A DNA stretch of 64,000 bases from assembly GCF_050920415.1 (NCBI RefSeq), contig NZ_CP169309.1. One strand, given 5' to 3'. Both the position numbers and the translations under genes were made by a program. The notes under the pieces were generated by a model. That model was not told the DNA's origin, did no database searches, and saw only the letters and a program-made list of their open reading frames with translations. Of the stretch, positions 5,222 to 63,381 are shown piece by piece; the stretch's first letter is position 1; each line of letters opens with the position of its first letter. Origin of the DNA: Escherichia coli. Lineage in GTDB: Bacteria; Pseudomonadota; Gammaproteobacteria; Enterobacterales; Enterobacteriaceae.

Positions 5222-8200
5222 TTACGCCTCCTCTTCATGACGGACAAAGCGACTTTTGGTCCACAATGCCAGGCGGTCGAACAGCAGATAAATCACCGGC
5301 GTGGTGAACAGCGTCAGCACCTGGCTAACAATCAGGCCGCCGACCATGCCGATGCCTAACGGACGACGTAGTTCCGCGCCGACTCCGGTGCTCAACATCA
5401 GCGGCAGCGCGCCAAGCAGTGCCGCCAGAGTGGTCATCAGGATCGGACGAAAACGCAGCAAACAGGCCTGGTAAATTGCATCGCGCGGCGACATGCCTTG
5501 CTCGCGCTCGGCAGCCAGCGCGAAGTCGATCATCATGATGGCGTTTTTCTTCACAATACCGATCAGCAAAATAATGCCGATGATGGCGATCACATCCAGC
5601 TCACTTCCGGCAATCATTAGCGCCAGCAGTGCGCCAACACCTGCCGTTGGCAACGTCGAGAGAATGGTGATCGGGTGGATAAAGCTCTCGTACAGAATGC
5701 CGAGCACGATATACATCGCCACCACCGCTGCGACAATCAGCCAGACAGTGCTGCCCAATGCCGACTGGAAGGCGAGGGTGCTGCCCTGGAATTGTGTGGT
5801 GATATCCACCGGCAGATTCAGTGTCTTTTCGGTATCCATAATTGCCTGCACCGCATCACCGAGAGAATAGTTATCCGGCACGTTAAAGGAGATGGTCGTT
5901 ACCGGGAACTGATCCAGATGGTTGATGGAGAGCGGCGCAAAACGCTGCTCAATTTTGGCAATTGAGCTTAACGGCACCACGCCACCGTCGCTGCTGGTCA
6001 GGCGAATGGTATCCAGCGCCGCAAGCCCTGGGGTATTTTCGGTATTGTGCTCCAGCACCACGCGATACTGGTTAGCCTGAGTATAAATAGTGGAAATCAG
6101 CCGCTGACCAAACGCGTTGTACAGGGCGTTATCGACGTCCGCCATGCTGATCCCCAGACGGCTGGCGCTGTCGCGATCAACATTGACATACGCCACCAGC
6201 CCTTTGTCCTGCCAATCGCTGGAGACATCAGAAAGCTGCGGCAGCTGCTGGAGTTTTTCCACGAGTTGCGGCACCCAGGTACTGAGCGCATCCAGCGATG
6301 TGGCCTGCAAGGTAAACTGGTACTGGGTGCGGCTGACCTGAGTATCGATAGTCAGATCCTGCGTTGGTTGCAGGAAGAGATCGACACCCGGCACTTTATC
6401 GACCGCCGATTGCAGACGGGAGATAACTTTTTGCACCCGGTCATCACGTTCATCCAACGGTTTGAGGTTGATCTGTAAACGCGCACTGTTCAGCGACGGG
6501 TTAGTGCCATCAACGCCAACAAACGAGGTCAGACTTTGCACTGCCGGATCCTGCAAAATCACATCCGCGACCTGGCGTTGCCGCTGGGCCATATTGGCAA
6601 AGGAGCTGGACTGCGGTGCCTGCAAAGTGCCCTGAATAATGCCGTTGTCCTGTACCGGGAAGAAACCTTTCGGAATGAACACCCACAATAGAACGCTCAG
6701 CAGCAGCGTGCTGAGCGCCACGCTTAAGGTCAGCCACGGATGATTCAGCACTTTCGCCAGTCCACGACCATAGGCGGCAATTATCCTGTCGAACATTTTT
6801 TCCGAGGCCCGGGAGAAGCGGTTCTGTTTACGCAGCGACTCCTGGCTGAGCATCCGCGCGCACATCATCGGTGTCAGGGTCAGCGACACCACGGCTGAGA
6901 TCAAAATCGCTACCGCCAGGGTAATGGCAAATTCGCGGAACAGTCGCCCGACGATATCGCCCATAAACAGCAGCGGGATCAGCACTGCAATCAGTGAGAA
7001 GGTCAGCGAGATTATGGTAAAGCCGATTTCACCCGCGCCCTTGAGCGCCGCCGCCAACGGTTTTTCGCCTTTTTCGATATAGCGGGAAATGTTTTCGATC
7101 ACCACGATGGCGTCATCGACCACGAATCCGGTGGCGATGGTTAACGCCATCAGCGTCAGGTTATTGATTGAAAAATCGAGAAACACCATAACCGCAAAGG
7201 TGCCAATTAACGACAGCGGCACCGCGACGCCAGGAATGATGGTCGCCGGAATATTGCGCAGAAACAGGTAGATAATCATGACTACCAGCGCGATAGCCAT
7301 CATCAGCTCAAACTGGGTATCGTCGACCGATGCGCGGATATTGGTAGTGCGATCGGAAAGTACCGTCACCTTCACCGATTTCGGCAGACTCTCGGTGAGC
7401 TGTGGCAGCATCTGCCGGATGCTGTCGGCGGTAGAGATAATGTTAGCACCGGGCTGGCGCTGAACATTCATCACAATGGCCTGTTCTTTGTTCGCCCATG
7501 CGCCAAGCCAACTGTTTTCTGCGCCTTGTTCAACGGTTGCGACATCACCAAGACGAATCGGCGCGCCGTTCTGGTAGGCGATAATCAACTGGCGATATTC
7601 ATCTGCAGATTGCATCTGGTCGTTCGCGGAAAGCGTGACCGCGCGGGAAGGGCCGTCGAGGCTACCTTTAGCCGAGTTAACGTTAGCGCCGGTAATGGCG
7701 GTGCGCACGGTTTCGCTGGTCAGGCCGAGGGCGGCAATCGCCTGGGCGTTAAGTTTGACGCGAACAGCCGGACGCTGACCGCCGGAAAGCGTCACCAGCC
7801 CGACGCCGGAAATCTGCGAGATCTTCTGCGCGACGCGGGTTTCCACCATGTCTTCCACTTGCGTCATCGGCATGGCGGTTGATGTGACGGCAAGCGTCAT
7901 GATCGGCGGATCTGCCGGGTTCACTTTGCTGTAAACCGGCGGGTTAGGCAGATCGCTCGGCAACAAGTTGGTCGCAGCGTTAATCGCGGCCTGCACTTCC
8001 TGCTCGGCGACATCCAGCGGTAATGTTAGCTGGAACTGCAAAGTGATAACTGACGCGCCGCCGGAACTTTGCGACGACATCTGTTTCAGGCCGGACATCT
8101 GCCCGAACTGGCGTTCGAGCGGTGCGGTAACGGCAGAGGTCATGACATCCGGGCTGGCACCTGGGTAGAGGGTGACCACCTGAATGGTTGGATAGTCCAC

Positions 8201-9662: not shown

Positions 9663-9814
9663 TGGAGGAATTATGAAACACTGTCGGGAATCGTCTGAAT
9701 GACGGGCACTTTTGCGAGCACGCATCCAGTAATAACACAGGAAACTATTTTATCTACGCGTTAGCGATAGACTGCATTAAGGGCAAAAGGAGGTAGGCCG
9801 ACGATTTCAGCGGG

Positions 9815-9975
9815 ACGCTGAAACGGGAAAGCCCCTCCCGAGGAAGGGGCCTTAAATAAGGAAAGGGTCATGATGAAGTGGATCATCATCGTGGTGCTCT
9901 TAGTCGTTAGCTACCCAGCTTACTAAGACTACCAGGGCGGGGGAAACCCCGCTCTACCCTCACTCCTGAAAGTAT
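9815..9975 (-). ncRNA. Sib-family antisense sRNA (antitoxin), copy 1; boundaries approximate
   Basis: Inferred from the known Sib/Ibs geometry (sRNA fully overlaps the toxin ORF on the opposite strand); minus-strand hairpin GCCCCUUCC-UCG-GGAGGGGC followed by a U-containing tract near 9820-9845 could be its terminator. Confidence 0.4.
9870..9926 (+). CDS. Ibs-family type I toxin, copy 1 (18 aa: MMKWIIIVVLLVVSYPAY)
   Basis: ATG ATG AAG ... TAC TAA read directly; preceded by aaggaaagg Shine-Dalgarno; not in ORF track (below size cutoff). Resembles E. coli IbsA/IbsB peptides. Confidence 0.6.
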   Translation: MMKWIIIVVLLVVSYPAY

Positions 9976-10142
9976 GCCTTCACAATCAGATTGTCAATCC
10001 GCAGGCTTTGTAGTCTGCGATCCTGCCAGCAAATATTCTTTGCGAGACGTTACGCAATAATCACAGATGAAACTATTTTATCTACGCGTTAGCGATAGAC
10101 TGCATTCAGGGCAAAAGGAGGTAGGCCGCCGATTTCAGCGGG

Positions 10143-10303
10143 ACGCTGAAACGGGAAAGCCCCTCCCGAGGAAGGGGCCTTAAATAAGGAAAGGGTCATG
10201 ATGAAGATACTCATCATCGTGGTGCTCTTAGTCATTAGCTTACCGGCTTACTAAGACTACCAGGGCGGGGGAAACCCCGCTCTACCCTCACTCCTGAAAG
10301 TAT
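10143..10303 (-). ncRNA. Sib-family antisense sRNA, copy 2; boundaries approximate
   Basis: By position relative to Ibs copy 2, same repeat unit. Confidence 0.4.
10198..10254 (+). CDS. Ibs-family type I toxin, copy 2 (18 aa: MMKILIIVVLLVISLPAY)
   Basis: Same architecture as copy 1, 328 bp downstream. Confidence 0.6.
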   Translation: MMKILIIVVLLVISLPAY

Positions 10304-10470
10304 GCCTTCACAATCAGATTGTCAATCCGCAGGCTTTGTAGTCTGCGATCCTGCCAGCAAATATTCTTTGCGAGACGTTACGCAATAATCACATGTGAAA
10401 CTATTTTATCTGCAAGTTAGCGATAGACTGCTTGCATGGCGAAAGGAGGTAGGCCGCCGATTTCAGCGGG

Positions 10471-10631
10471 ACGCTGAAACGGGAAAGCCCCTCCCGAGGA
10501 AGGGGCCTTAAATAAGGAAAGGGTCATGATGAAGCTACTCATCATCGTGGTGCTCTTAGTTATTAGCTGGCCAGCTTACTAAGACTACCAGGGCGGGGGA
10601 AACCCCGCTCTACCCTCACTCCTGAAGTTAT
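10471..10631 (-). ncRNA. Sib-family antisense sRNA, copy 3; boundaries approximate
   Basis: By position relative to Ibs copy 3; the 5' flank of this unit is divergent so the sRNA may be altered. Confidence 0.3.
10526..10582 (+). CDS. Ibs-family type I toxin, copy 3 (18 aa: MMKLLIIVVLLVISWPAY)
   Basis: Same architecture; the distal part of this repeat unit diverges after the ORF. Confidence 0.55.
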   Translation: MMKLLIIVVLLVISWPAY

Positions 10632-10799
10632 GTTACTCCACCCTTATTGTCAATCTGTAAGTCCACGTTCTTGCGGGGCGAATAGCAAAACCCTCTGCGC
10701 TTATGGGCCGAATTCTGAAAGTTGCTTTGCCTGCTCTTATTTCATTATTGCAGTCGGTATGATACCGGACCTCAATAATTCTCTAAGAAAGGATTTCTT

Positions 10800-26655: not shown

Positions 26656-26694
26656 CAGTGTATTGGTAGCTAAAAAGCCAGGGGCGGTAGCGTG
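26656..26694 (+). promoter_or_regulatory. JUMPstart element with ops (GGCGGTAGCGTG) in the wza leader; RfaH recruitment site
   Basis: cagtgtattggtagctaaaaagccaggggcggtagcgtg; ops at 26683..26694. Confidence 0.75.
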
Positions 26695-30635: not shown

Positions 30636-30745
30636 CTGTCGGATGCGATGCTGACGCATCTTATCCGACCTACGTTCACGCCGCATCAGGCAAGCAAACC
30701 CGCTCCGTAGGCCGGATAAGGCGTTCACGCCGCATCCGGCAACAG
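30636..30745. repeat. BIME (several REP palindromes) between wzc and wcaA
   Basis: gtcggatgcgatgctgacgcatcttatccgacctacg ... cgtaggccggataaggcgttcacgccgcatccggc. Confidence 0.7.
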
Positions 30746-34547: not shown

Positions 34548-34665
<118 letters not shown>

Positions 34666-41237: not shown

Positions 41238-41338
41238 TAGTTGAATAATCAACCGGAATAAATCTCCGGTAAATAATGACAAAAACAAAATTGGCCGTTT
41301 CGGTCAGGGCCAACTATTGCCTGAAAAAGGGTAACGAT

Positions 41339-42709: not shown

Positions 42710-42763
42710 TGTCGGATCTTCCCTTACCCCATTGCGGGTAAGGGGCTAATAACAGGAACAACG

Positions 42764-50939: not shown

Positions 50940-50978
50940 CAGTACTCTGGTAGCTGTAAAGCCAGGGGCGGTAGCGTG
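50940..50978 (+). promoter_or_regulatory. JUMPstart element with ops (GGCGGTAGCGTG) upstream of the O-antigen operon
   Basis: cagtactctggtagctgtaaagccaggggcggtagcgtg; ops at 50967..50978; ~75 bp upstream of rmlB. Confidence 0.75.
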
Positions 50979-53037: not shown

Positions 53038-53094
53038 TAGTTTTTGCATCTTGTTCGTGATGGTGGAACAAGATGAATTAAAAGGAATGATGAA

Positions 53095-53984: not shown

Positions 53985-54398
53985 ATGATGGATATTAAAT
54001 TAATCTCTTTGCAAAAACATGGGGATGAGCGTGGTGCATTAATTGCTCTTGAAGAGCAACGAAATATACCTTTCGAAGTCAAAAGAATATATTACATACT
54101 CGAGACTCTTAAGGGAGTAAGACGCGGATTTCATGCGCACAAGGTTACTCGTCAGTTAGCTATTGTAGTCAAGGGAGCTTGTAAATTTCATCTGGATAAT
54201 GGTAAAGAAACAAAGCAGGTGGAACTTAATGATCCAACAATTGCGTTGCTGATAGAACCCTATATATGGCATGAAATGTATGATTTTAGTGATGATTGTG
54301 TGCTGCTTGTAATTGCGGATGATTTCTATAAAGAGTCTGATTATATACGCAATTATGATGATTTTATTAGAAGAGTAAATTCAATTGAGAATTCATAA
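53985..54398 (+). CDS. fdtA: dTDP-4-keto-6-deoxyglucose 3,4-isomerase (FdtA/QdtA-type, WxcM-like cupin)
   Basis: 137 aa; [13 protein letters not shown]...[11 protein letters not shown]...RGFHAHK is typical of FdtA-type isomerases. FdtA versus QdtA cannot be separated by eye. Confidence 0.7.
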
Positions 54399-54852
54399 GC
54401 TAAGTGACGTCCAGACAACATCAATTGGTGATGGAACAACTATCTGGCAGTTTGTTGTAATACTAAAAGGTGCTGTAATTGGTAATAATTGCAACATCTG
54501 TGCAAATACCTTGATTGAAAATAACGTTGTAATTGGTAACAATGTCACAGTCAAAAGCGGTGTGTATATTTGGGATGGCGTTAAAATAGAGGATAATGTT
54601 TTTATTGGTCCTTGTGTAGCATTTACAAATGATAAGTATCCTCGCTCTAAAGTCTATCCTGATGAATTTTTGCACACAATAATACGCAAAGGAGCATCAA
54701 TAGGTGCTAATGCAACCATCCTGCCAGGAATTGAAATTGGTGAAAAAGCAATCGTTGGTGCGGGGAGTGTCGTAACCAAAAATGTACCGCCATGCGCAAT
54801 AGTAGTAGGTAATCCAGCTCGATTTATTAAATGGGTAGAGGATAATGAATAA
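54385..54852 (+). CDS. fdtC: dTDP-3-amino-3,6-dideoxyhexose N-acetyltransferase (hexapeptide repeat, FdtC-like)
   Basis: 155 aa; hexapeptide repeats (IGNNCNI..., IGNNVTV..., IGANATI...); lies between the isomerase and the aminotransferase. Confidence 0.65.
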
Positions 54853-55951
54853 AATTGATTTTTTAGATCTTTTTGCAATTAACCAGCGACAGCACAAAGA
54901 ATTAGTCTCTGCGTTTAGTAGGGTGCTAGATTCTGGTTGGTATATCATGGGCGAAGAACTTGAGCAGTTCGAGAAAGAGTTCGCAGAATACTGTGGAGTT
55001 AAGTATTGCATTGGTGTAGCAAATGGCCTTGATGCGTTGATACTAGTATTGAGGGCATGGAAAGAACTCGGCTATCTAGAAGACGGTGACGAGGTATTAG
55101 TACCGGCAAATACATATATTGCTTCTATTCTTGCTATAACAGAGAACAAACTTGTTCCTGTTCTTGTTGAACCAGATATAGAAACTTATAATATTAATCC
55201 TGCTTTAATTGAAAATTACATTACGGAAAAAACTAAAGCAATATTACCGGTTCACTTATATGGTCTATTGTGCAATATGCCAGAAATTAGTGCAATCGCA
55301 AGAAAATATAATCTGTTGATTCTTGAAGATTGTGCACAAGCACATGGTGCAATACGTGATGGTCGCAAAGCTGGAGCTTGGGGGGATGCTGCAGGATTTA
55401 GTTTTTATCCAGGAAAAAACCTTGGAGCTTTGGGGGATGCGGGAGCTGTTACTACAAATAATGCAGAATTATCCTCAACTATAAAAGCTTTGCGAAATTA
55501 TGGGTCACATAAGAAATATGAAAATATTTATCAGGGATTGAATAGTCGATTGGATGAACTGCAAGCAGCCTTATTGCGTGTAAAAATCCATACATTACCG
55601 GAAGATACTGCGATTCGGCAAAGGATTGCTGAAAAATATATTCGTGAAATAAAAAACCCTGCGATTACGTTACCAGTGTACGAAGGCCAAGGTGCGCACG
55701 TTTGGCATTTATTTGTAGTAAGAATCGCTAATCGTGAAAAATTCCAGTCATACTTATCAGAGAAGGGTATCCAAACCTTAATTCACTATCCATTACCACC
55801 CCATAAGCAGCAAGCATATCAAAATATGTCTAGTCTTAGCCTTCCAATTACTGAGCAAATTCATGATGAAGTCATTTCTTTACCTATAAGTCCGGTAATG
55901 AGTGAAGATGATGTCAATTATGTAATCAAAGTGGTCAATGATTACAAGTAA
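54845..55951 (+). CDS. fdtB: dTDP-3-keto-6-deoxyhexose 3-aminotransferase (DegT/DnrJ/EryC1 family, FdtB-like)
   Basis: 368 aa; PLP-aminotransferase family features; gene context. Confidence 0.7.
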
Positions 55952-57213
55952 TGAAAAAATTTCTTCAGGTAACTATATTATCCGCTATCTATACATTCAT
56001 TAAAATGATTGCGGGTTTTATCATCGGTAAGGTAGTAGCAATTTATACAGGGCCATCAGGGGTAGCAATGCTTGGCCAAGTGCAAAGTTTAATCACAATA
56101 GTTGCAGGTACTACTTCTGCACCTGTAAGCACCGGTCTTGTTCGATATACTGCGGAAAATTGGCAAGAAGGACAGGAAGCATGCGCGCCATGGTGGCGCG
56201 CATGCTTAAGGGTTACTCTGTTTTTATTCTTGCTTATTATTCCCGTTGTTATTTTATTGTCGAAAAATATTAGCGAGTTACTTTTTAGCGATGGACAATA
56301 CACATGGTTAATCATTTTCGCATGTTGTATATTGCCATTCTCCATTTTAAATACATTGATCGCTTCAGTTTTAAATGGTCAACAATTCTATAAGCAATAT
56401 ATATTGGTTGGGATGTTTTCTGTATTCATTTCTACTATGTTTATGATTTTGTTGATTGTAGCTTATAATCTTAAAGGTGCATTGATTGCCACGGCTATAA
56501 ATAGTGCTATTGCTGGTCTTGTATTAGTTTTATTTTGTCTCAATAAATCTTGGTTTAGATTTAAATATTGGTGGGGTAAAACGGATAAAGACAAAATTAT
56601 AAAAATTATTCATTATACTCTGATGGCTTTGGTTTCTGTTATCTCCATGCCTACAGCATTGATGTGTATTAGAAAAATATTGATTGCTAAAACTGGTTGG
56701 GAGGATGCAGGGCAATGGCAGGCCGTATGGAAGATATCTGAGGTCTATCTTGGTGTTGTGACAATTGCTTTGTCAACATATTTCTTACCAAGATTGACAA
56801 TTATAAAAACAAGTTTCCTTATAAAAAAAGAGGTAAATAGTACTATATTATACATAGTATCTATTACTTCATTCATGGCGTTGAGTATCTATTTATTCCG
56901 CGATTTGGTAATAACAGTTTTATTTACTGAACAGTTTCGCTCAGCTCGTGAATTATTTTTGTTACAACTCGTAGGGGATGTAATAAAAATTGCTGGTTTT
57001 CTTTATGCATACCCTCTTCAAAGTCAGGGGCATACTAAACTATTCATCAGTTCAGAAGTGATTTTTTCTATGCTCTTTATCGTTACCACCTATATTTTTG
57101 TTGTAAATTATGGAGTACATGGTGCTAACATAAGTTATGTCATTACATATAGTTTATATTTTGTGTTTGCATTTGTGTTTACTAATTTTATTAATGTCAG
57201 AAGAATTAATTAA
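55951..57213 (+). CDS. wzx: O-antigen flippase Wzx
   Basis: 420 aa with ~12 predicted TM segments; AT-rich codon usage; position in the O-antigen cluster. Confidence 0.8.
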   Translation: MKKFLQVTILSAIYTFIKMIAGFIIGKVVAIYTGPSGVAMLGQVQSLITIVAGTTSAPVSTGLVRYTAENWQEGQEACAPWWRACLRVTLFLFLLIIPVVILLSKNISELLFSDGQYTWLIIFACCILPFSILNTLIASVLNGQQFYKQYILVGMFSVFISTMFMILLIVAYNLKGALIATAINSAIAGLVLVLFCLNKSWFRFKYWWGKTDKDKIIKIIHYTLMALVSVISMPTALMCIRKILIAKTGWEDAGQWQAVWKISEVYLGVVTIALSTYFLPRLTIIKTSFLIKKEVNSTILYIVSITSFMALSIYLFRDLVITVLFTEQFRSARELFLLQLVGDVIKIAGFLYAYPLQSQGHTKLFISSEVIFSMLFIVTTYIFVVNYGVHGANISYVITYSLYFVFAFVFTNFINVRRIN

Positions 57214-57222
57214 AAACAGAGG

Positions 57223-58278
57223 TTGAAATTGAAAATAATTATACCTGTCTTAGGATTTGGCAGGGCTGGTGGTGAAAGAGTTCTTTCTAAGCTGGCAACT
57301 GAATTGATGAATTATGGACATGATGTAAGTTTTGTTGTTCCAGATAATAGAACTAATCCATATTATGCTACCACAGCAAAAATCGTCACGAGTAAATCTA
57401 GTCAAAACCGTGTAAAAATATTGAGAATCATTAAAAATTACTATAATCTGTGGCGTAAATGCATAGAATTAAATCCTGATGCTGTAGTTGCTAGTTTTCA
57501 TTTGACTGCCTATCTTGTCGCATTATTACCAATCACCCGTCGTAAGAAATATTATTATATTCAGGCGTATGAAGTTAATTTTTTTGATAATATAATATGG
57601 AAATTAATAGCGGGTTTAACATATTATTTACCGCTTAAAAAAATACTAAATAGTCCTAATTTGCTTCCTCATAAACATGATGATTTTATAGGAGTAGTTC
57701 CTGCAGGAGTAGATTTAAACGTTTTCTATCCGAAACCATCAAATAGGTTATTAAATGGTCACACATCAATAGGGATTATTGGTAGAAAAGAGAAGCACAA
57801 AGGAACTAGCGAAATTATTTCAGTATTGTGTTCACTGGAAAATAAAGTTGGAATTATAATTAATATTGCGATCTATCTTGAAGAAGTTGATAAGGAGCGT
57901 TTAATTGCTGCCGGGTTTCAGGTTAATTTTTTTCCGATTACTTCTGATTTAGAATTGGCATCTTTTTATCGAAGCAATGACATCATGATTGCAGCTGGGT
58001 TAATTGAAGATGGCGCTTTCCATTATCCTTGTGCTGAATCAATGGCTTGTGGTTGTCTTGTTATTTCAAATTATGCGCCACTTACTGAAACTAACAGTGT
58101 ACTTAAATTAGTCAAGTTTGATGCTTGCAAACTTGGTAAAGCAATTAATCTTTGTCTCAATCTTGACCTAGAAGAAAAAAGCAAAGAAATCCAATCTAAT
58201 ATTTCTGTGTTGAATAAATATGACTGGAAAATTGTTGGTGAAACTTTCAATAGTTTATTGTTAGATGCAAATAAATAG
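57223..58278 (+). CDS. O-antigen glycosyltransferase (GT4-like)
   Basis: 351 aa; E-x7-E-like region EDGAFHYPCAESMACGCLVI. The track start is TTG at 57223; a second TTG at 57229 has better spacing from the agagg Shine-Dalgarno. Confidence 0.7.
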   Translation: MKLKIIIPVLGFGRAGGERVLSKLATELMNYGHDVSFVVPDNRTNPYYATTAKIVTSKSSQNRVKILRIIKNYYNLWRKCIELNPDAVVASFHLTAYLVALLPITRRKKYYYIQAYEVNFFDNIIWKLIAGLTYYLPLKKILNSPNLLPHKHDDFIGVVPAGVDLNVFYPKPSNRLLNGHTSIGIIGRKEKHKGTSEIISVLCSLENKVGIIINIAIYLEEVDKERLIAAGFQVNFFPITSDLELASFYRSNDIMIAAGLIEDGAFHYPCAESMACGCLVISNYAPLTETNSVLKLVKFDACKLGKAINLCLNLDLEEKSKEIQSNISVLNKYDWKIVGETFNSLLLDANK

Positions 58279-58298
58279 TATACGTTGATGGGGAAAAT

Positions 58299-58856
58299 AT
58301 GAATATTGTTAAAACTGATATTCCAGATCTGATCGTTCTTGAACCAAAAGTGTTTAGTGATGAACGCGGCTTTTTTATGGAGAGTTATAATCAGATTGAA
58401 TTTGAGAAGACAATAGGAAGGCACGTAAATTTTGTTCAGGATAATCATTCAAAATCTAGTAAAGGCGTACTACGTGGGTTACATTATCAATTAGCACCGT
58501 ATGCACAGGCTAAATTAGTTCGATGTGTTGTAGGTCAGGTATTTGATGTTGCTGTTGATCTTAGAAAAAATTCACCAACGTTCAAAAAATGGTTTGGAAT
58601 AACCCTTTCCGCAGAAAATAAACGACAATTATGGATACCTGAAGGATTTGCTCATGGTTTCTTGGTGACCAGTGATGAAGCTGAGTTCATTTATAAAACA
58701 ACGAACTACTATGCTCCTGGTCATCAGCAAGCAATTATTTACAATGATCCTATTTTAAACATCGATTGGCCTTTCTGCAGTAGTGCTCTGTCATTATCGC
58801 AAAAAGATCAAGAAGCAAAATTATTTTCAGAATTATTGGACAGTGAACTGTTCTAA
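58299..58856 (+). CDS. rmlC: dTDP-4-dehydrorhamnose 3,5-epimerase
   Basis: 185 aa; FSDERGFFMESY...LRGLHYQ...IPEGFAHGF; separated from rmlBDA by other genes. Confidence 0.9.
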   Translation: MNIVKTDIPDLIVLEPKVFSDERGFFMESYNQIEFEKTIGRHVNFVQDNHSKSSKGVLRGLHYQLAPYAQAKLVRCVVGQVFDVAVDLRKNSPTFKKWFGITLSAENKRQLWIPEGFAHGFLVTSDEAEFIYKTTNYYAPGHQQAIIYNDPILNIDWPFCSSALSLSQKDQEAKLFSELLDSELF

Positions 58857-58923
58857 TAAAGTGTGCCACCTTATCCGTCTGAAGGATAGGTGGTTGCTTA
58901 TATTTTTTGAGTATGTTTGTATA

Positions 58924-59886
58924 ATGACAGAAAATAGTCCGAAATATAAACACGATAAAAGCTTAATAAGTTTTATCTACTTATTTTTTATATTTACACT
59001 TATTGTAGGCTTCATTATCGCAAATACCCAGTTTTTGGGGCGAAGTAGAGACTATGATAATTATATACAGATCTTTTCTGGTGAAGAAGGGGAGGGGGTT
59101 CTTGAATTATTTTATCGCGGATTGATGTTAATAACGACCAGCTATGAAATTATCATTTTTATAATTTTAACATGTTCTTTTTTTATAAAGGCAAGGTTTC
59201 TTGCTAACTATTCGCGTAATTTTTCAGGCTTGACCTTATTCTTTGTTTATTATGCAAGCGTTGCACTTTGGGTTTTAGATTATACTCAATTCAGAAATGG
59301 TCTATGTATTTCCATTTTAATGTTTTCCGTATACTATTTATTTATAAATAAACCGACTTATTTTTATTTCTCGCTATTATGTGCAATTGCAACTCATTGG
59401 TCTGCTTTGCCTTTTTTGCTTTTATATCCTTTTGTCTATTCAAAAAAAATAAGACACCTTGGTTATTTTTGTTTCAGTATTCTTGTTTTGATTGCGATCT
59501 CAGGAGAAGGAAAAGAGATCATTTCTTTTATAAGAAATTTTGGAGTGGGACAAAAAATAGGAAACGAAGCTGGTGTAAATTTAATAAATTCATTATCCCT
59601 TACCGCTATTTTCTGGTTTGTTATTAGTTACATATCAAGCATTGGAAATGAAAGGAGAAATTTAAGACTTTTCTTTTGTTATGGTGTCATGCAATACGTG
59701 ACTTTTAGCCTTTTCTCTCTACCTGTTATGGCTTTCCGTATTTTGGAAATGTATTTTTTCCTTATGTTAACCATTGGGGTGTTTATTAAGCAAAAAAAGA
59801 ATTATTATTTTGTTTTTTGCAAAGTGTTAATTTTATTGTATCTAACATACTATTATCATATGGTTTTTGGAGTGATTAATGTGTAA
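58924..59886 (+). CDS. wzy: O-antigen polymerase Wzy (candidate)
   Basis: Polytopic membrane protein. The ORF track frame (58783) overlaps rmlC; the internal ATG at 58924 (MTENSPKYKHD...) avoids the overlap. Very AT-rich. Confidence 0.6.
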   Translation: MTENSPKYKHDKSLISFIYLFFIFTLIVGFIIANTQFLGRSRDYDNYIQIFSGEEGEGVLELFYRGLMLITTSYEIIIFIILTCSFFIKARFLANYSRNFSGLTLFFVYYASVALWVLDYTQFRNGLCISILMFSVYYLFINKPTYFYFSLLCAIATHWSALPFLLLYPFVYSKKIRHLGYFCFSILVLIAISGEGKEIISFIRNFGVGQKIGNEAGVNLINSLSLTAIFWFVISYISSIGNERRNLRLFFCYGVMQYVTFSLFSLPVMAFRILEMYFFLMLTIGVFIKQKKNYYFVFCKVLILLYLTYYYHMVFGVINV

Positions 59887-60766
59887 GGCTAAGGTGTTGG
59901 CTATAATTGTTACTTACAACCCGGAAATTATTCGTTTGACGGAATGTATTAACTCTTTAGCCCCACAAGTTGAGAGAATAATTCTTGTAGATAATGGCTC
60001 AAATAATAGTCATTTGATAAAAAATATCATTATTAATAACCTTGAAATTATTTTGCTTTCGGAAAACAAAGGCATTGCATTTGCTCAGAACCATTGTGTT
60101 AAGAAGGGTCTGGAAGCAAAAGAGTTTGACTATTTATTTTTCTCAGATCAGGATACTTGCTTTCCTAGCGATGTTATTGAAAAACTTAAGAGTACATTTA
60201 CGAAAAATAATAAAAAAGGTAAAAATGTTGCTTGTGCTTCTCCTTTTTTTAAAGACCATCGTTCAAATTATATGCATCCGTCAGTCAGCCTAAATATTTT
60301 TACGAGTACAAAAGTTATATGTAGTGAAGTAGACGATGATCTTTATCCCTCGCATGTTATTGCTTCTGGGATGTTAATGTCTCGCGAGGCATGGCGCGTC
60401 GTCGGACCATTTTGTGAAAAACTCTTTATAGACTGGGTTGATACAGAATGGTGTTGGCGTGCATTAGCTAATAGTATGATTATTGTTCAGACACCATCAG
60501 TCATCATTTCTCATGAACTTGGGTATGGGCAGAAAATTTTTGCTGGTCGATCTGTTACAATACATAATTCTTTCAGAAATTTTTATAAAATACGTAATGC
60601 AATATACTTAATGCTGCATTCAAATTATAGCTTCAAGTATCGTTATCATGCTTTTTTTCATGCGACAAAGAATATTGTATTTGAAATTTTATATTCGAAA
60701 GAAAAATTAAATTCACTGAAGGTTTGTTTTAAAGCTGTACGTGATGGTATGTTCAATAATTTTTAA
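59879..60766 (+). CDS. O-antigen glycosyltransferase (GT2; rhamnosyltransferase-like)
   Basis: 295 aa; IIVTYNPE...VDNGSNNS...FSDQDTCF (GT2 DxD-type motifs). Confidence 0.7.
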   Translation: MCKAKVLAIIVTYNPEIIRLTECINSLAPQVERIILVDNGSNNSHLIKNIIINNLEIILLSENKGIAFAQNHCVKKGLEAKEFDYLFFSDQDTCFPSDVIEKLKSTFTKNNKKGKNVACASPFFKDHRSNYMHPSVSLNIFTSTKVICSEVDDDLYPSHVIASGMLMSREAWRVVGPFCEKLFIDWVDTEWCWRALANSMIIVQTPSVIISHELGYGQKIFAGRSVTIHNSFRNFYKIRNAIYLMLHSNYSFKYRYHAFFHATKNIVFEILYSKEKLNSLKVCFKAVRDGMFNNF

Positions 60767-60796
60767 TACAAAAATAGTTAGGCTCAAGGTGTTTAA

Positions 60797-61873
60797 ATGG
60801 AAGAAAATAATATGAAGACGGTCGCTGTAGTTGGCACAGTGGGTGTTCCTGCTTGTTATGGTGGGTTTGAATCACTTGTTCAGAATCTAATTGATTATCA
60901 ATCTGATGGTATACAATATCAGATATTTTGCTCTTCAAAAAAATATAATAAAAAATTAAAAAATTATAAAAATGCAGAATTAATCTATTTGCCGATAAAT
61001 GCCAATGGCGTCTCTAGCATAATTTATGACATTATGTGTTTAATTATTTGTTTATTCAAAAGGCCAGATGTTGTTTTAATATTGGGGGTATCTGGTTGTT
61101 TATTTCTACCAATTTATAAACTATTTTCAAAATCAAAGATCATTGTCAACATCGATGGGCTTGAATGGCGTAGAAATAAATGGGGAACGTTTGCTAAGAA
61201 ATTTCTCAAAATATCTGAGGCGATATCTATTAGAATAGCTGATATTATCATTTCAGATAATCAAGCAATAGCTGATTATGTGGAAAATAAGTACAATAAA
61301 AAAAGCGTAGTTATAGCTTATGGGGGAGATCATGCTACTAATCTTAGTACACCGATAGACGATGATCAAAAAAAAGATGGTTATTATTTGGGGCTTTGTA
61401 GGATAGAGCCTGAGAATAATATAGAAATGATTTTGAATGCCTTCATTAATACAGATAAAAAAATTAAATTTATGGGTAATTGGGATAATAGCGAGTATGG
61501 GCGCCAGCTAAAAAAATATTATTCAAACTATCCAAATATCACACTACTAGAACCTAACTATAATATCGAAGAACTTTATAAACTAAGAAAAAATTGCCTT
61601 GCATACATTCATGGACACTCGGCTGGTGGAACAAACCCTTCTTTAGTTGAAGCGATGCATTTTAATATTCCTATTTTTGCTTTCGATTGTGACTTTAATC
61701 GTTACACAACTAATAATTTAGCTCATTACTTTAATGATTCTGAACAACTGACCTCATTAGCAGACAGTTTGTCTTTTGGAAATCTTAAATGTCAAGTATT
61801 AGATTTAAAAAAATATGCTGAAGATATGTATAACTGGAGGCATATAGCTGCTATGTATGAATCTATTTATTAA
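60797..61873 (+). CDS. O-antigen glycosyltransferase (GT4-like with N-terminal DUF1972-like region)
   Basis: 358 aa; E-x7-E-like NPSLVEAMHFNIPIFA. Confidence 0.7.
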   Translation: MEENNMKTVAVVGTVGVPACYGGFESLVQNLIDYQSDGIQYQIFCSSKKYNKKLKNYKNAELIYLPINANGVSSIIYDIMCLIICLFKRPDVVLILGVSGCLFLPIYKLFSKSKIIVNIDGLEWRRNKWGTFAKKFLKISEAISIRIADIIISDNQAIADYVENKYNKKSVVIAYGGDHATNLSTPIDDDQKKDGYYLGLCRIEPENNIEMILNAFINTDKKIKFMGNWDNSEYGRQLKKYYSNYPNITLLEPNYNIEELYKLRKNCLAYIHGHSAGGTNPSLVEAMHFNIPIFAFDCDFNRYTTNNLAHYFNDSEQLTSLADSLSFGNLKCQVLDLKKYAEDMYNWRHIAAMYESIY

Positions 61874-62054
61874 ACGCATTAACAATAATATAATTGACCT
61901 TATATAGCTATCAGAGTAAAAATGTAACGCTGATTTTTTTGTTAAATGATGCGCATTATATATTTAATGATTAAAATACTCTTGATCAAATAAAACTATT
62001 TAATTAATAATGTAAAATTTCATTATGCTATTTAAGATGTGAAAAATAACTTAA

Positions 62055-62125
62055 ATAAATGATGGGATATATTTATATTATCCCGGTTATAGACAAGCCC
62101 AGGGAAAGATCATCAGAAGTACACT
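62055..62125 (+). mobile_element. Fossil fragment homologous to the 5' end of the ISAs1/H-repeat transposase gene
   Basis: tgatgggatatatttatattatcccggttatagacaagcccagggaaag is ~83% identical to 62258..62306 of the downstream transposase gene. Confidence 0.55.
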
Positions 62126-62244
62126 TTTTGTACTAAATAATTCGCATTTTATGTTTAAAAATATGAGATATTCCTCATTACCTGAAGCTGTTTTTTATTG
62201 CTTATACATGATCAAATACTCCTTACATAATTAAGGAGAACAAA

Positions 62245-63381
62245 ATGGAACTTAAAAAATTGATGGAACATATTTCTATTATCCCCGATTACAGACAAGC
62301 CTGGAAAGTGGAACATAAATTATCGGATATTCTACTGTTGACTATTTGTGCCGTCATTTCTGGTGCAGAAGGCTGGGAAGATATAGAGGATTTTGGAGAA
62401 ACACATCTCGATTTTTTGAAGCAATATGGTGATTTTGAAAATGGTATTCCTGTTCACGATACCATTGCCAGAGTTGTATCCTGTATCAGTCCTGCAAAAT
62501 TTCACGAGTGCTTTATTAACTGGATGCGAGATTGCCATACTTCAGATGATAAAGACGTCATCGCAATTGATGGAAAAACACTCCGGCATTCTTATGACAA
62601 GAGTCGCCGTAAGGGAGCGATTCATGTCATTAGTGCGTTCTCAACAATGCACAGTCTGGTCATCGGACAGATCAAGACGGATGAGAAATCCAATGAGATT
62701 ACAGCCATCCCTGAACTTCTTAACATGTTGGATATTAAAGGGAAAATTATCACAACTGATGCGATGGGTTGCCAGAAAGATATTGCAGAGAAGATACAAA
62801 AACAGGGAGGTGATTATTTATTCGCTGTAAAAGGAAATCAGCGTCGGCTTAATAAAGCCTTTGAAGAAAAATTCCCACTGAAAGAATTAAATAATCCAGA
62901 GCATGACAGTTATGCAATTAGTGAAAAGAGTCACGGCAGAGAAGATATCCGTCTTCATATTGTTTGCGATGACCCTGATGAACTTATTGATTTCACGTTT
63001 GAATGGAAAGGACTGAAAAAATTATGCGTGGCAGTCTCCTTTCGCTCAATAATAGCAGAGCAAAAGAAAGAGCCCGAAATGATGGTCAGATATTATATCA
63101 GTTCTGCTGATTTAACCGCTGAGAAGTTTGCGACAGCGATTTGAAATCACTGGCACGTGGAGAATAAGCTGCACTGGCGTCTGGACGTGGTAATGAATGA
63201 AGACGATTGTAAAATAAGAAGAGGAAATGCAGCAGAATTATTTTCTGGGATACGGCACATTGCTATTAATATTTTGACGAATGATAAGGTATTCAAGACA
63301 GGATTAAGACGTAAGATGCGAAAAGCAGCCATGGACAGAAACTATCTCGCGTCAGTCCTTGCGGGGAGCGGGCTTTACTAG
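62245..63381 (+). pseudogene. ISAs1-family (H-repeat-associated) transposase gene interrupted by a single in-frame TGA at 63142..63144
   Basis: ORF track shows 62245..63144 and 63157..63381 in the same frame. Read through the stop they give ~378 codons, typical of H-repeat/ISAs1 transposases (...[29 protein letters not shown]...). Confidence 0.8.

Follow-up and report, generated by a model that had tools for sequence, protein, structure and literature searches.

The rmlC-wzy spacer of an Escherichia coli O-antigen operon holds an RNA hairpin followed by a T-rich tract, i.e., a terminator-like arrangement placed before genes of the same operon. The question is what such an element does at this position. 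It was studied in the window, i.e., the whole stretch of DNA analysed, with a length of 64,000 nt. The kind of element is already well known and fairly ordinary. In the searchable literature, no published description of this particular hairpin was found, and an O-antigen review and the O2 rfb paper had no mention of terminators, stem-loops, or JUMPstart. A search of the same literature for RNA 3' ends mapped in an O2 strain, by Term-seq or otherwise, gave no result.

Genomic context of the spacer

The O-antigen cluster of the window was assigned to the E. coli O2/O50 type by the annotation of matching genomes. Bases 58300-59900 matched 132 complete E. coli genomes with 95-100% identity. The genes annotated in these matches were rfbC, wzy as "O2/O50 family O-antigen polymerase", and a family-2 glycosyltransferase. 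The gene order of the best match was galF, rfbB, rfbD, rfbA, 3,4-ketoisomerase, acyltransferase, aminotransferase, wzx, and GT4 glycosyltransferase, followed by rfbC, wzy, GT2, DUF1972 glycosyltransferase, an ISAs1 remnant, sulfatase-family genes, and gnd. The placement inside an O-antigen operon, which had been read from the letters of the sequence, was borne out by this annotation.

The rmlC gene is the last gene of the upstream block, fdtA-fdtC-fdtB-wzx-GT4-rmlC, and wzy opens the downstream module, wzy-GT2-DUF1972 GT. The TAA stop of rmlC ends at 58856, and another TAA comes directly after it (58857-58859). With the wzy start placed at the ATG at 58924, as annotated in the RefSeq relatives, 58857-58923 is the exact rmlC-wzy spacer. 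This 67-nt spacer is the largest inside the O-antigen cluster. Its elements are arranged in the order TAA TAA AGTGTG CCACCTTATCC GTCTGAA GGATAGGTGG TTGCTTATATTTTTTG AGTATGTTTGTATA ATG, and the coordinates are given in Table 1.

Table 1. Positions of the features discussed, in window coordinates
Feature	Position	Strand	Basis
JUMPstart element	50940-50978	+	Rfam RF01707, 60 bits vs gathering score 35
ops site GGCGGTAGCGTG, exact match	50967-50978	+	inside JUMPstart
rfbC/rmlC (dTDP-4-dehydrorhamnose 3,5-epimerase)	58299-58856	+	ORF list; RefSeq annotation of 99.9%-identical genomes
Tandem stops TAA TAA and short spacer	58854-58864	+	sequence, alignment
Conserved RNA hairpin G-CCACCT(T)ATCC / GTCTGAA / GGATAGGTGG-T	58865-58894	+	folds, orthologues
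5' arm CCACCTTATCC	58866-58876		
Loop GTCTGAA	58877-58883		
3' arm GGATAGGTGG	58884-58893		
T-rich tail TTGCTTATATTTTTTG	58894-58909	+	sequence, allele comparison
wzy-proximal leader GAGTATGTTTGTATA	58909-58923	+	alignment; AU-rich
wzy (O2/O50 family O-antigen polymerase, EpsG family)	58924-59886	+	ORF list, annotation, homologues

The JUMPstart/ops element was found 75 nt upstream of rmlB. Operons that bear an ops site are transcribed by RNA polymerase modified by RfaH. Because the leader carries JUMPstart and ops, RfaH control of the O2/O50 O-antigen operon is expected. A second JUMPstart/ops element was found in the leader of the colanic acid operon (26656-26694, + strand, 57 bits).

Structure and stability of the hairpin

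Ten Watson-Crick pairs make up the stem, in which one T is bulged. G58865.U58894 can close it as an additional pair, and the loop has 7 nt. Thus counted, the stem has 10-11 bp including 6 G-C pairs, with a G+C-rich base and AU pairs in the middle. The 7-nt loop and the bulge are on the loose side for an intrinsic terminator. The predicted free energy (ViennaRNA) was -13.6 kcal/mol for the 28-mer alone and -15.6 kcal/mol with the G.U pair. In contexts of 95-320 nt, the hairpin dominated the local fold and the pair probabilities were 0.96-1.0, except for one pair at 0.51, which results from two equivalent bulge positions at adjacent T's. The fold of an 81-nt segment had a z-score of -2.64, and 2 of 200 dinucleotide shuffles folded as well.

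Within the low-GC part of the cluster (53985-61873, 7.9 kb), only two hairpins of the + strand reached -13.6 kcal/mol, compared with an expectation of 0.37 from block shuffles. The second of them lies inside wzx. It is a 31-nt perfect GC-rich palindrome (AAGCATGCGCGCCATGGTGGCGCGCATGCTT, 56177-56207, + strand, -25.7 kcal/mol) in a gene of about 33% GC, and the peptide it encodes, EACAPWWRACL, is the same in every Wzx orthologue. E. coli O2 and H605 have the intact palindrome, which synonymous codons break in Enterobacter. It looks like a coincidence of codon choice, i.e., the codons of this peptide happen to be mutual reverse complements.

The base of the rmlC-wzy stem lies 8-9 nt past the rmlC stop, 7-8 nt in the Enterobacter relatives, and 7-9 nt across the orthologues. 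From established footprint sizes, this would be about the leading edge of a ribosome terminating on rmlC.

The sequence-only reading had described a hairpin and a T-rich tract between rmlC and wzy, with a stem of about 10 bp at about 58866-58893, and had proposed the folding free energy as a check. Its coordinates, sequence, and gene names were correct as stated, the ten pairs were found with a bulge in addition, and the energies are those of a stable fold. It had also put the hairpin "immediately after" the rmlC stop. The adjacency holds, and the strict sense of the word does not, since the stem starts 9 nt past the stop.

Strength as a terminator

Terminator strength was scored by a d'Aubenton-Carafa-type discriminant with energies from ViennaRNA. 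The reference set consisted of five terminators, i.e., trpA t, rrnB T1, lambda tR2, T7 Te, and the his attenuator. These five canonical terminators scored +22 to +70, with 6-8 U in the first 8 positions and hybrid energies of -1.4 to -5.3 kcal/mol. The window allele, with the tail UUGCUUAU, scored -21.7, with 5 U in the first 8 and a hybrid of -7.1 kcal/mol. The E. coli H605 version scored -16.6 (4 U, -7.1 kcal/mol), and the Enterobacter versions scored -11.9 to -14.6 (6 U, -3.6 to -4.8 kcal/mol). The nT tail score of the window was 2.66, compared with 3.97-5.51 in the canonical terminators. Its rU:dA hybrid is thus 2-6 kcal/mol more stable than in real terminators, whereas the hybrid energies of the Enterobacter tails (TATTTTGTTTT / TATTTTATTCTT and UAUUUUGUUUU / UAUUUUAUUCUU) are within the range of real terminators. 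In the 64-kb window, the site ranked 57th of 1169 candidates. A consensus terminator scan also flagged it, but the scan gave 8 sites in total against 9.4 in shuffles.

The element shares with canonical Rho-independent terminators a stable sense-strand stem-loop with a G+C-rich base, a free energy of -13.6 kcal/mol compared with -11.8 to -24.5 kcal/mol, and a T-rich sense-strand sequence after a stop codon. It differs in its looser structure, with the 7-nt loop, the bulge, and the mid-stem AU pairs, and in its U-tract. In place of an uninterrupted U-tract of about 7-9 nt abutting the stem, the window has a tract that is interrupted by GC after two U's (UUGC). The distal T6 run would be too far from the stem to serve as a release site, judging from the established mechanism of termination. 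The length of this run is polymorphic among O2/O50 alleles, from T5 to T8 (window 58903-58908; alleles L002, L003, and L120). T6 occurs in about half of the complete genomes and T7 in about half, and the run also splits the two main O2 allele groups. The hairpin family looks like a weak-to-moderate terminator, with a stem that the E. coli alleles have kept and a U-tract that has decayed further in them. A terminator for antisense transcription was considered and rejected, because the minus-strand tail (CACACTTTATTAG) is not U-rich.

In a promoter scan, no plausible promoter of their own was found for wzy and the two downstream glycosyltransferase genes, and promoter-like sites were not enriched (57 vs 53 expected). 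An internal wzy promoter at TATAAT (58919-58924) was rejected as the transcript start would fall inside wzy and no -35 is conserved. Since wzy and the two glycosyltransferases are needed for the O unit and have no plausible promoter of their own, most transcription must read through the hairpin.

These results bear on the two functional suggestions of the sequence-only reading. Of "intrinsic terminator or attenuator", the attenuator is plausible, and the terminator is too strong a word because of the interrupted U-tract, the score, and the need for read-through. A role as a "target for RfaH-mediated read-through" is loosely tenable and uncertain. The ops leader and the precedent between hlyA and hlyB speak for it, and the reported inefficiency of RfaH at intrinsic terminators speaks against it (PMC7819879). 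In E. coli, a terminator located just past a stop codon loses efficiency because of the trailing ribosome (PMC7819879).

Conservation of the hairpin

Orthologous loci were reached via homologues of the O2 Wzy protein and then via their genomic contexts. The hairpin was found in all loci with the syntenic order wzx, GT4, rmlC, a 66-69-nt spacer, wzy, GT2, and DUF1972. These loci belong to Enterobacter mori, Enterobacter sp. UPMP2060, and metagenomic relatives, with Wzy 73-74% identical, and to E. coli H605, with Wzy 87% identical.

Between the window and Enterobacter, the rmlC and wzy codons of conserved 4-fold type were only 48-59% identical at their third positions, whereas the stem columns (22 paired positions and the bulge) were 78-83% identical. 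The binomial P was about 0.007-0.02 per comparison, and the comparisons are not independent. The T-rich tail was kept in all orthologues, with an identity to Enterobacter of 57-64%, i.e., about the neutral level.

Among 6 distinct sequences, 8 of the 11 pairs were invariant, and every change in the stem preserved pairing. E. coli has C-G as the innermost pair, two Enterobacter sequences have U-A, and a third lineage has the intermediate U.G. For the closing pair, E. coli has G.U where Enterobacter has G-C. The T for A at 58887 in the common O2 allele would break a T-A pair. The stem absorbs this change, i.e., A58873, formerly bulged, pairs with the new T, and T58872 becomes the bulge. The A at 58887 is kept in strain FT130, H605, and Enterobacter. 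Overall, 98.5% of the cells were paired, compared with 38-62% when the 3' partners were slid by 1-3 columns. Covariation was not significant, as 101 of 500 shuffles reached the observed score with only six distinct sequences. From these alignments, the conservation of the hairpin is moderately supported, and covariation in the stem is suggestive only.

An extended lower stem between an A-tract and the U-tract, proposed by RNAalifold, was rejected. It is mostly composed of G.U and A-U pairs, with one broken cell in each of two pairs.

Proposed function

The reading that we prefer, tentatively and at a little under an even chance, is that the hairpin is a weak, leaky Rho-independent attenuator, which may also cap and protect the 3' ends that it creates. 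A minority of polymerases would stop at the hairpin, and the hairpin would protect the resulting or processed 3' ends. The rmlB to rmlC part of the mRNA may then exceed the wzy part in abundance or stability, and this inequality may contribute to the low expression of Wzy. Most polymerases would read through, owing to the poor U-tract, the ribosome finishing rmlC at the base of the stem, and RfaH on the elongation complex. Since O-antigen synthesis depends on the genes past the hairpin, termination can only be a minor event.

If functional, the hairpin would help to explain unequal expression from one promoter across the O-antigen operon. Upstream of it are the sugar-nucleotide enzymes, the flippase, and one glycosyltransferase, and downstream is the low-abundance Wzy polymerase. 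Among extraintestinal and avian pathogenic E. coli, O2 is one of the major serogroups, which gives Wzy dosage and O-chain polymerisation some practical interest. Current concepts are unchanged by the hairpin.

The contrast between a conserved stem and a tail at the neutral level can also be read in another way, which we consider unlikely and still worth weighing. The element may serve only RNA stability or processing, without termination, as a hairpin that blocks 3'-to-5' exonucleases after an endonucleolytic cut in the AU-rich wzy leader. The upstream cistrons would then outlive the wzy segment by differential decay, as with the intercistronic hairpins of other operons. A stem conserved above the neutral level with a tail that is not fits this explanation, and so does a U-tract too poor for efficient termination. 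RNase E prefers single-stranded AU-rich sites, and the AU-rich, unstructured segment 58894-58923 resembles such sites. Hairpins without T tails are also common in other spacers of the ops operons of the window. However, T-richness follows the stem in every orthologue and is of terminator grade in Enterobacter, and a pure barrier to exonucleases would not need such a tail.

Link to rmlC and the module junction

More distant relatives of the wzy-GT2-DUF1972-sulfatase module, with Wzy 50-69% identical, have a different upstream block, i.e., an aminotransferase, a long wzx, and an unknown 300-aa gene. In these wzy loci, no hairpin was found, and the spacers fold weakly. Two of the loci, L090 and L091, keep about 20 nt of the wzy-proximal leader (GGGTATATTTATATATTATG / GAGTACTTATACATATCATG) and have no hairpin. 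Therefore, the homology breaks at about 58909, right after the T tract. As the hairpin is absent behind other genes, it belongs to the 3' end of rmlC. Judged from these loci, the hairpin and T tract are an appendage at the 3' end of the rmlC block, and two modules join in the spacer. The GC content falls from 0.35-0.38 to 0.29-0.30 at this junction. The position of the hairpin at the seam of two gene modules gives small but concrete evidence on the assembly of O-antigen clusters.

The same distribution raises the possibility of a relic with little or no present function, i.e., an old operon-end terminator or a junction scar of the rmlC block. It would have been carried along when the block was joined to the wzy-GT2-DUF1972 module and tolerated as too weak to matter. 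We regard this as rather improbable. It agrees with the restriction of the hairpin and T tract to loci in which wzy follows rmlC, with their absence behind other genes, with the wzy-proximal leader kept in L090 and L091 without a hairpin, and with the GC drop at the junction. The E. coli U-tract looks degenerate compared with that of Enterobacter, the length of the T-run varies freely, and covariation did not reach significance, all of which a relic would allow. However, a neutral relic should have decayed, and the stem is 78-83% identical where 4-fold sites are about 50-59% identical. Moreover, all four kinds of stem change keep the pairing. An inherited terminator is also not a habit of rmlC genes, which generally lack a terminator-like hairpin. 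Of 79 diverse rmlC loci, only 1 gave a positive score in the 95 nt that follow the stop, and 8 reached -21.7 or more, i.e., were at least as good as the window site. The idea that rmlC genes generally carry a terminator is not supported by this count. Outside this family, the closest RmlC relatives are at most 65% identical.

Translation and the wzy-proximal leader

The base of the stem at the edge of the terminating ribosome permits a stricter version of the attenuator, to which we give little credence. The hairpin may act as a checkpoint of translation coupling, i.e., it would fold and stop RNA polymerase only when no ribosome follows closely. Such a stop would occur, as part of this same improbable reading, when RfaH-mediated coupling of transcription and translation has failed. 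If true, the wzy-GT module, with its polytopic membrane polymerase, would be expressed only from coupled, RfaH-loaded complexes.

The wzy gene has no good Shine-Dalgarno sequence, and the sole candidate is GAG, 12 nt upstream. RfaH-controlled genes are typically without Shine-Dalgarno elements (PMC7819879), and the GAG-only candidate of wzy fits this habit. The wzy-proximal leader was conserved in the Enterobacter loci at 71-82% compared with the window, and it accompanies wzy even where rmlC and the hairpin are absent.

These features would suit a role in the translation of wzy, which we hold to be very improbable. The hairpin would sequester GC-rich bases, including the Shine-Dalgarno-like AGGTGG in its 3' arm, so that the AU-rich leader stays single-stranded as a ribosome (S1) standby site for a wzy that lacks a Shine-Dalgarno sequence. 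The missing Shine-Dalgarno sequence, typical as it is of RfaH-controlled genes (PMC7819879), and the conserved leader are what this explanation has to offer. However, loci with a homologous wzy and a matching proximal leader manage without the hairpin, and the variable T-run leaves the spacing between hairpin and start unconstrained.

Upstream of the ATG, the wzy frame has no stop for 47 codons (58783-58923), i.e., it runs back across the hairpin and reaches rmlC. Upstream alternative starts, i.e., GTG at 58861 and TTG at 58894, were rejected for want of a usable Shine-Dalgarno spacing. The 333-aa wzy call in H605, which starts inside the hairpin (L084:3001), is probably an annotation artefact. 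A mini-ORF, ATG-TTT-GTA-TAA (58913-58924), overlaps the wzy ATG. It was rejected as a coupling device because a 2-nt indel destroys it in the Enterobacter orthologues.

Occurrence of the element

The 68-nt spacer was searched by blastn with E up to 1. Of 5426 genomes, 132 had a match, each at a single place and always in an O2/O50 cluster. A repeated element of the REP, BIME, or MITE kind was rejected, as the hairpin is a single copy per genome, is limited to O2/O50, and has no REP consensus. No Rfam covariance model matched 58857-58923, at E up to 10 or at gathering thresholds. The exact-arm pattern had no match in 100,044 representative species genomes. A looser pattern gave 24 matches in metagenomes. 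Ten of these were the hairpin locus, i.e., 9 E. coli O2 alleles and 1 Enterobacter-like version, and the other 14 were unrelated chance matches. No attC-like or other recombination-site consensus was seen by eye.

A DNA-level element, i.e., a protein-binding inverted repeat or a recombination hotspot between O-antigen modules, is highly improbable, because, although the hairpin sits exactly where the homology of module combinations breaks, it is single-copy (132/5426 genomes) without attC-like or REP-like consensus, its pattern was not found in the 100,044 representative species genomes, and its G.U-tolerant changes (G.U/G-C and the U.G intermediate) are typical of RNA and not of DNA pairing.

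Comparison with known systems

As an internal attenuator, the hairpin can be compared with known elements in other operons. In hlyCABD, a stem-loop terminator between hlyA and hlyB has been described as RfaH-dependent (PMC9306574). The two cases are alike in having an intercistronic stem-loop in a long, horizontally acquired, ops-bearing operon (PMC9306574). The hly stem-loop splits a highly needed upstream part from a membrane-protein part of lower need, and its read-through is attributed to RfaH (PMC9306574). The difference is that the hly element is experimentally documented, whereas the rmlC-wzy element is predicted, with a poor U-tract and low predicted strength.

The polysaccharide operons offer a second comparison. 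A "stem-loop transcriptional attenuator" has been described after wzc in the colanic acid operon (PMC2516531), and for Klebsiella cps clusters, putative attenuators of the Rho-independent type have been reported between wzc and wbaP (PMC3438125). The wzc attenuators of colanic acid, E. coli group 1 capsule, and Klebsiella cps resemble the rmlC-wzy element in that each is a hairpin where two functional modules of a polysaccharide operon with JUMPstart/ops meet (PMC2516531, PMC3438125). They differ in sequence and in position, i.e., between wzc and the first glycosyltransferase rather than between rmlC and wzy. The O2/O50 operon has the two features expected of an internal attenuator under RfaH/ops, i.e., ops and JUMPstart in the leader and a stem-loop in a spacer at a module border. 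If functional, the rmlC-wzy hairpin would be an O-antigen example for the short list of internal attenuators in RfaH-controlled operons.

Hairpins are also found in other spacers of the two ops operons of the window. A REP-like hairpin lies in the wzc-wcaA spacer (30711-30740, + strand), the site where the literature places the colanic acid attenuator (PMC2516531). This hairpin has no T tail, whereas the rmlC-wzy hairpin is single-copy and T-tailed. Further strong intercistronic hairpins of the + strand lie at 34571-34613 and 42721-42744, and the rmlD-rmlA spacer has a hairpin at 53047-53075 (+ strand, -12 kcal/mol). Among the intercistronic hairpins of the two operons, only the rmlC-wzy element has a T tail. 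Like REP and BIME elements, it is an intercistronic hairpin that could stabilise the upstream mRNA, and unlike them it is unrepeated and has no REP consensus.

Other observations in the window

The algC RNA motif (RF02929, 78 bits) was found at 41285-41334 on the + strand, in a spacer inside the colanic acid cluster.

Downstream of the wzy module, E. coli O2 has an ISAs1-family transposase remnant after the DUF1972 glycosyltransferase gene, with a 371-nt AT-rich gap between them (window 61874-63144). In the Enterobacter relatives (L085-L088, about 5950-6960), a sulfatase-family gene of the LTA-synthase-like kind directly follows the DUF1972 glycosyltransferase. E. coli N96 carries the sulfatase-family gene downstream of the IS, where it is broken into two ORFs.

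Three tandem copies of the Sib antitoxin sRNA (Rfam RF00113, 138-140 bits) were found on the - strand at 9730-10653. The copies are located at 9855-9997, 10183-10325, and 10511-10653, with a 328-nt period, 2.7 units, and 95% matches. The corresponding locus of K-12 has two copies, sibA and sibB. Each Sib copy of the window has its own terminator hairpin, GCCCCTTCCTCGGGAGGGGC.
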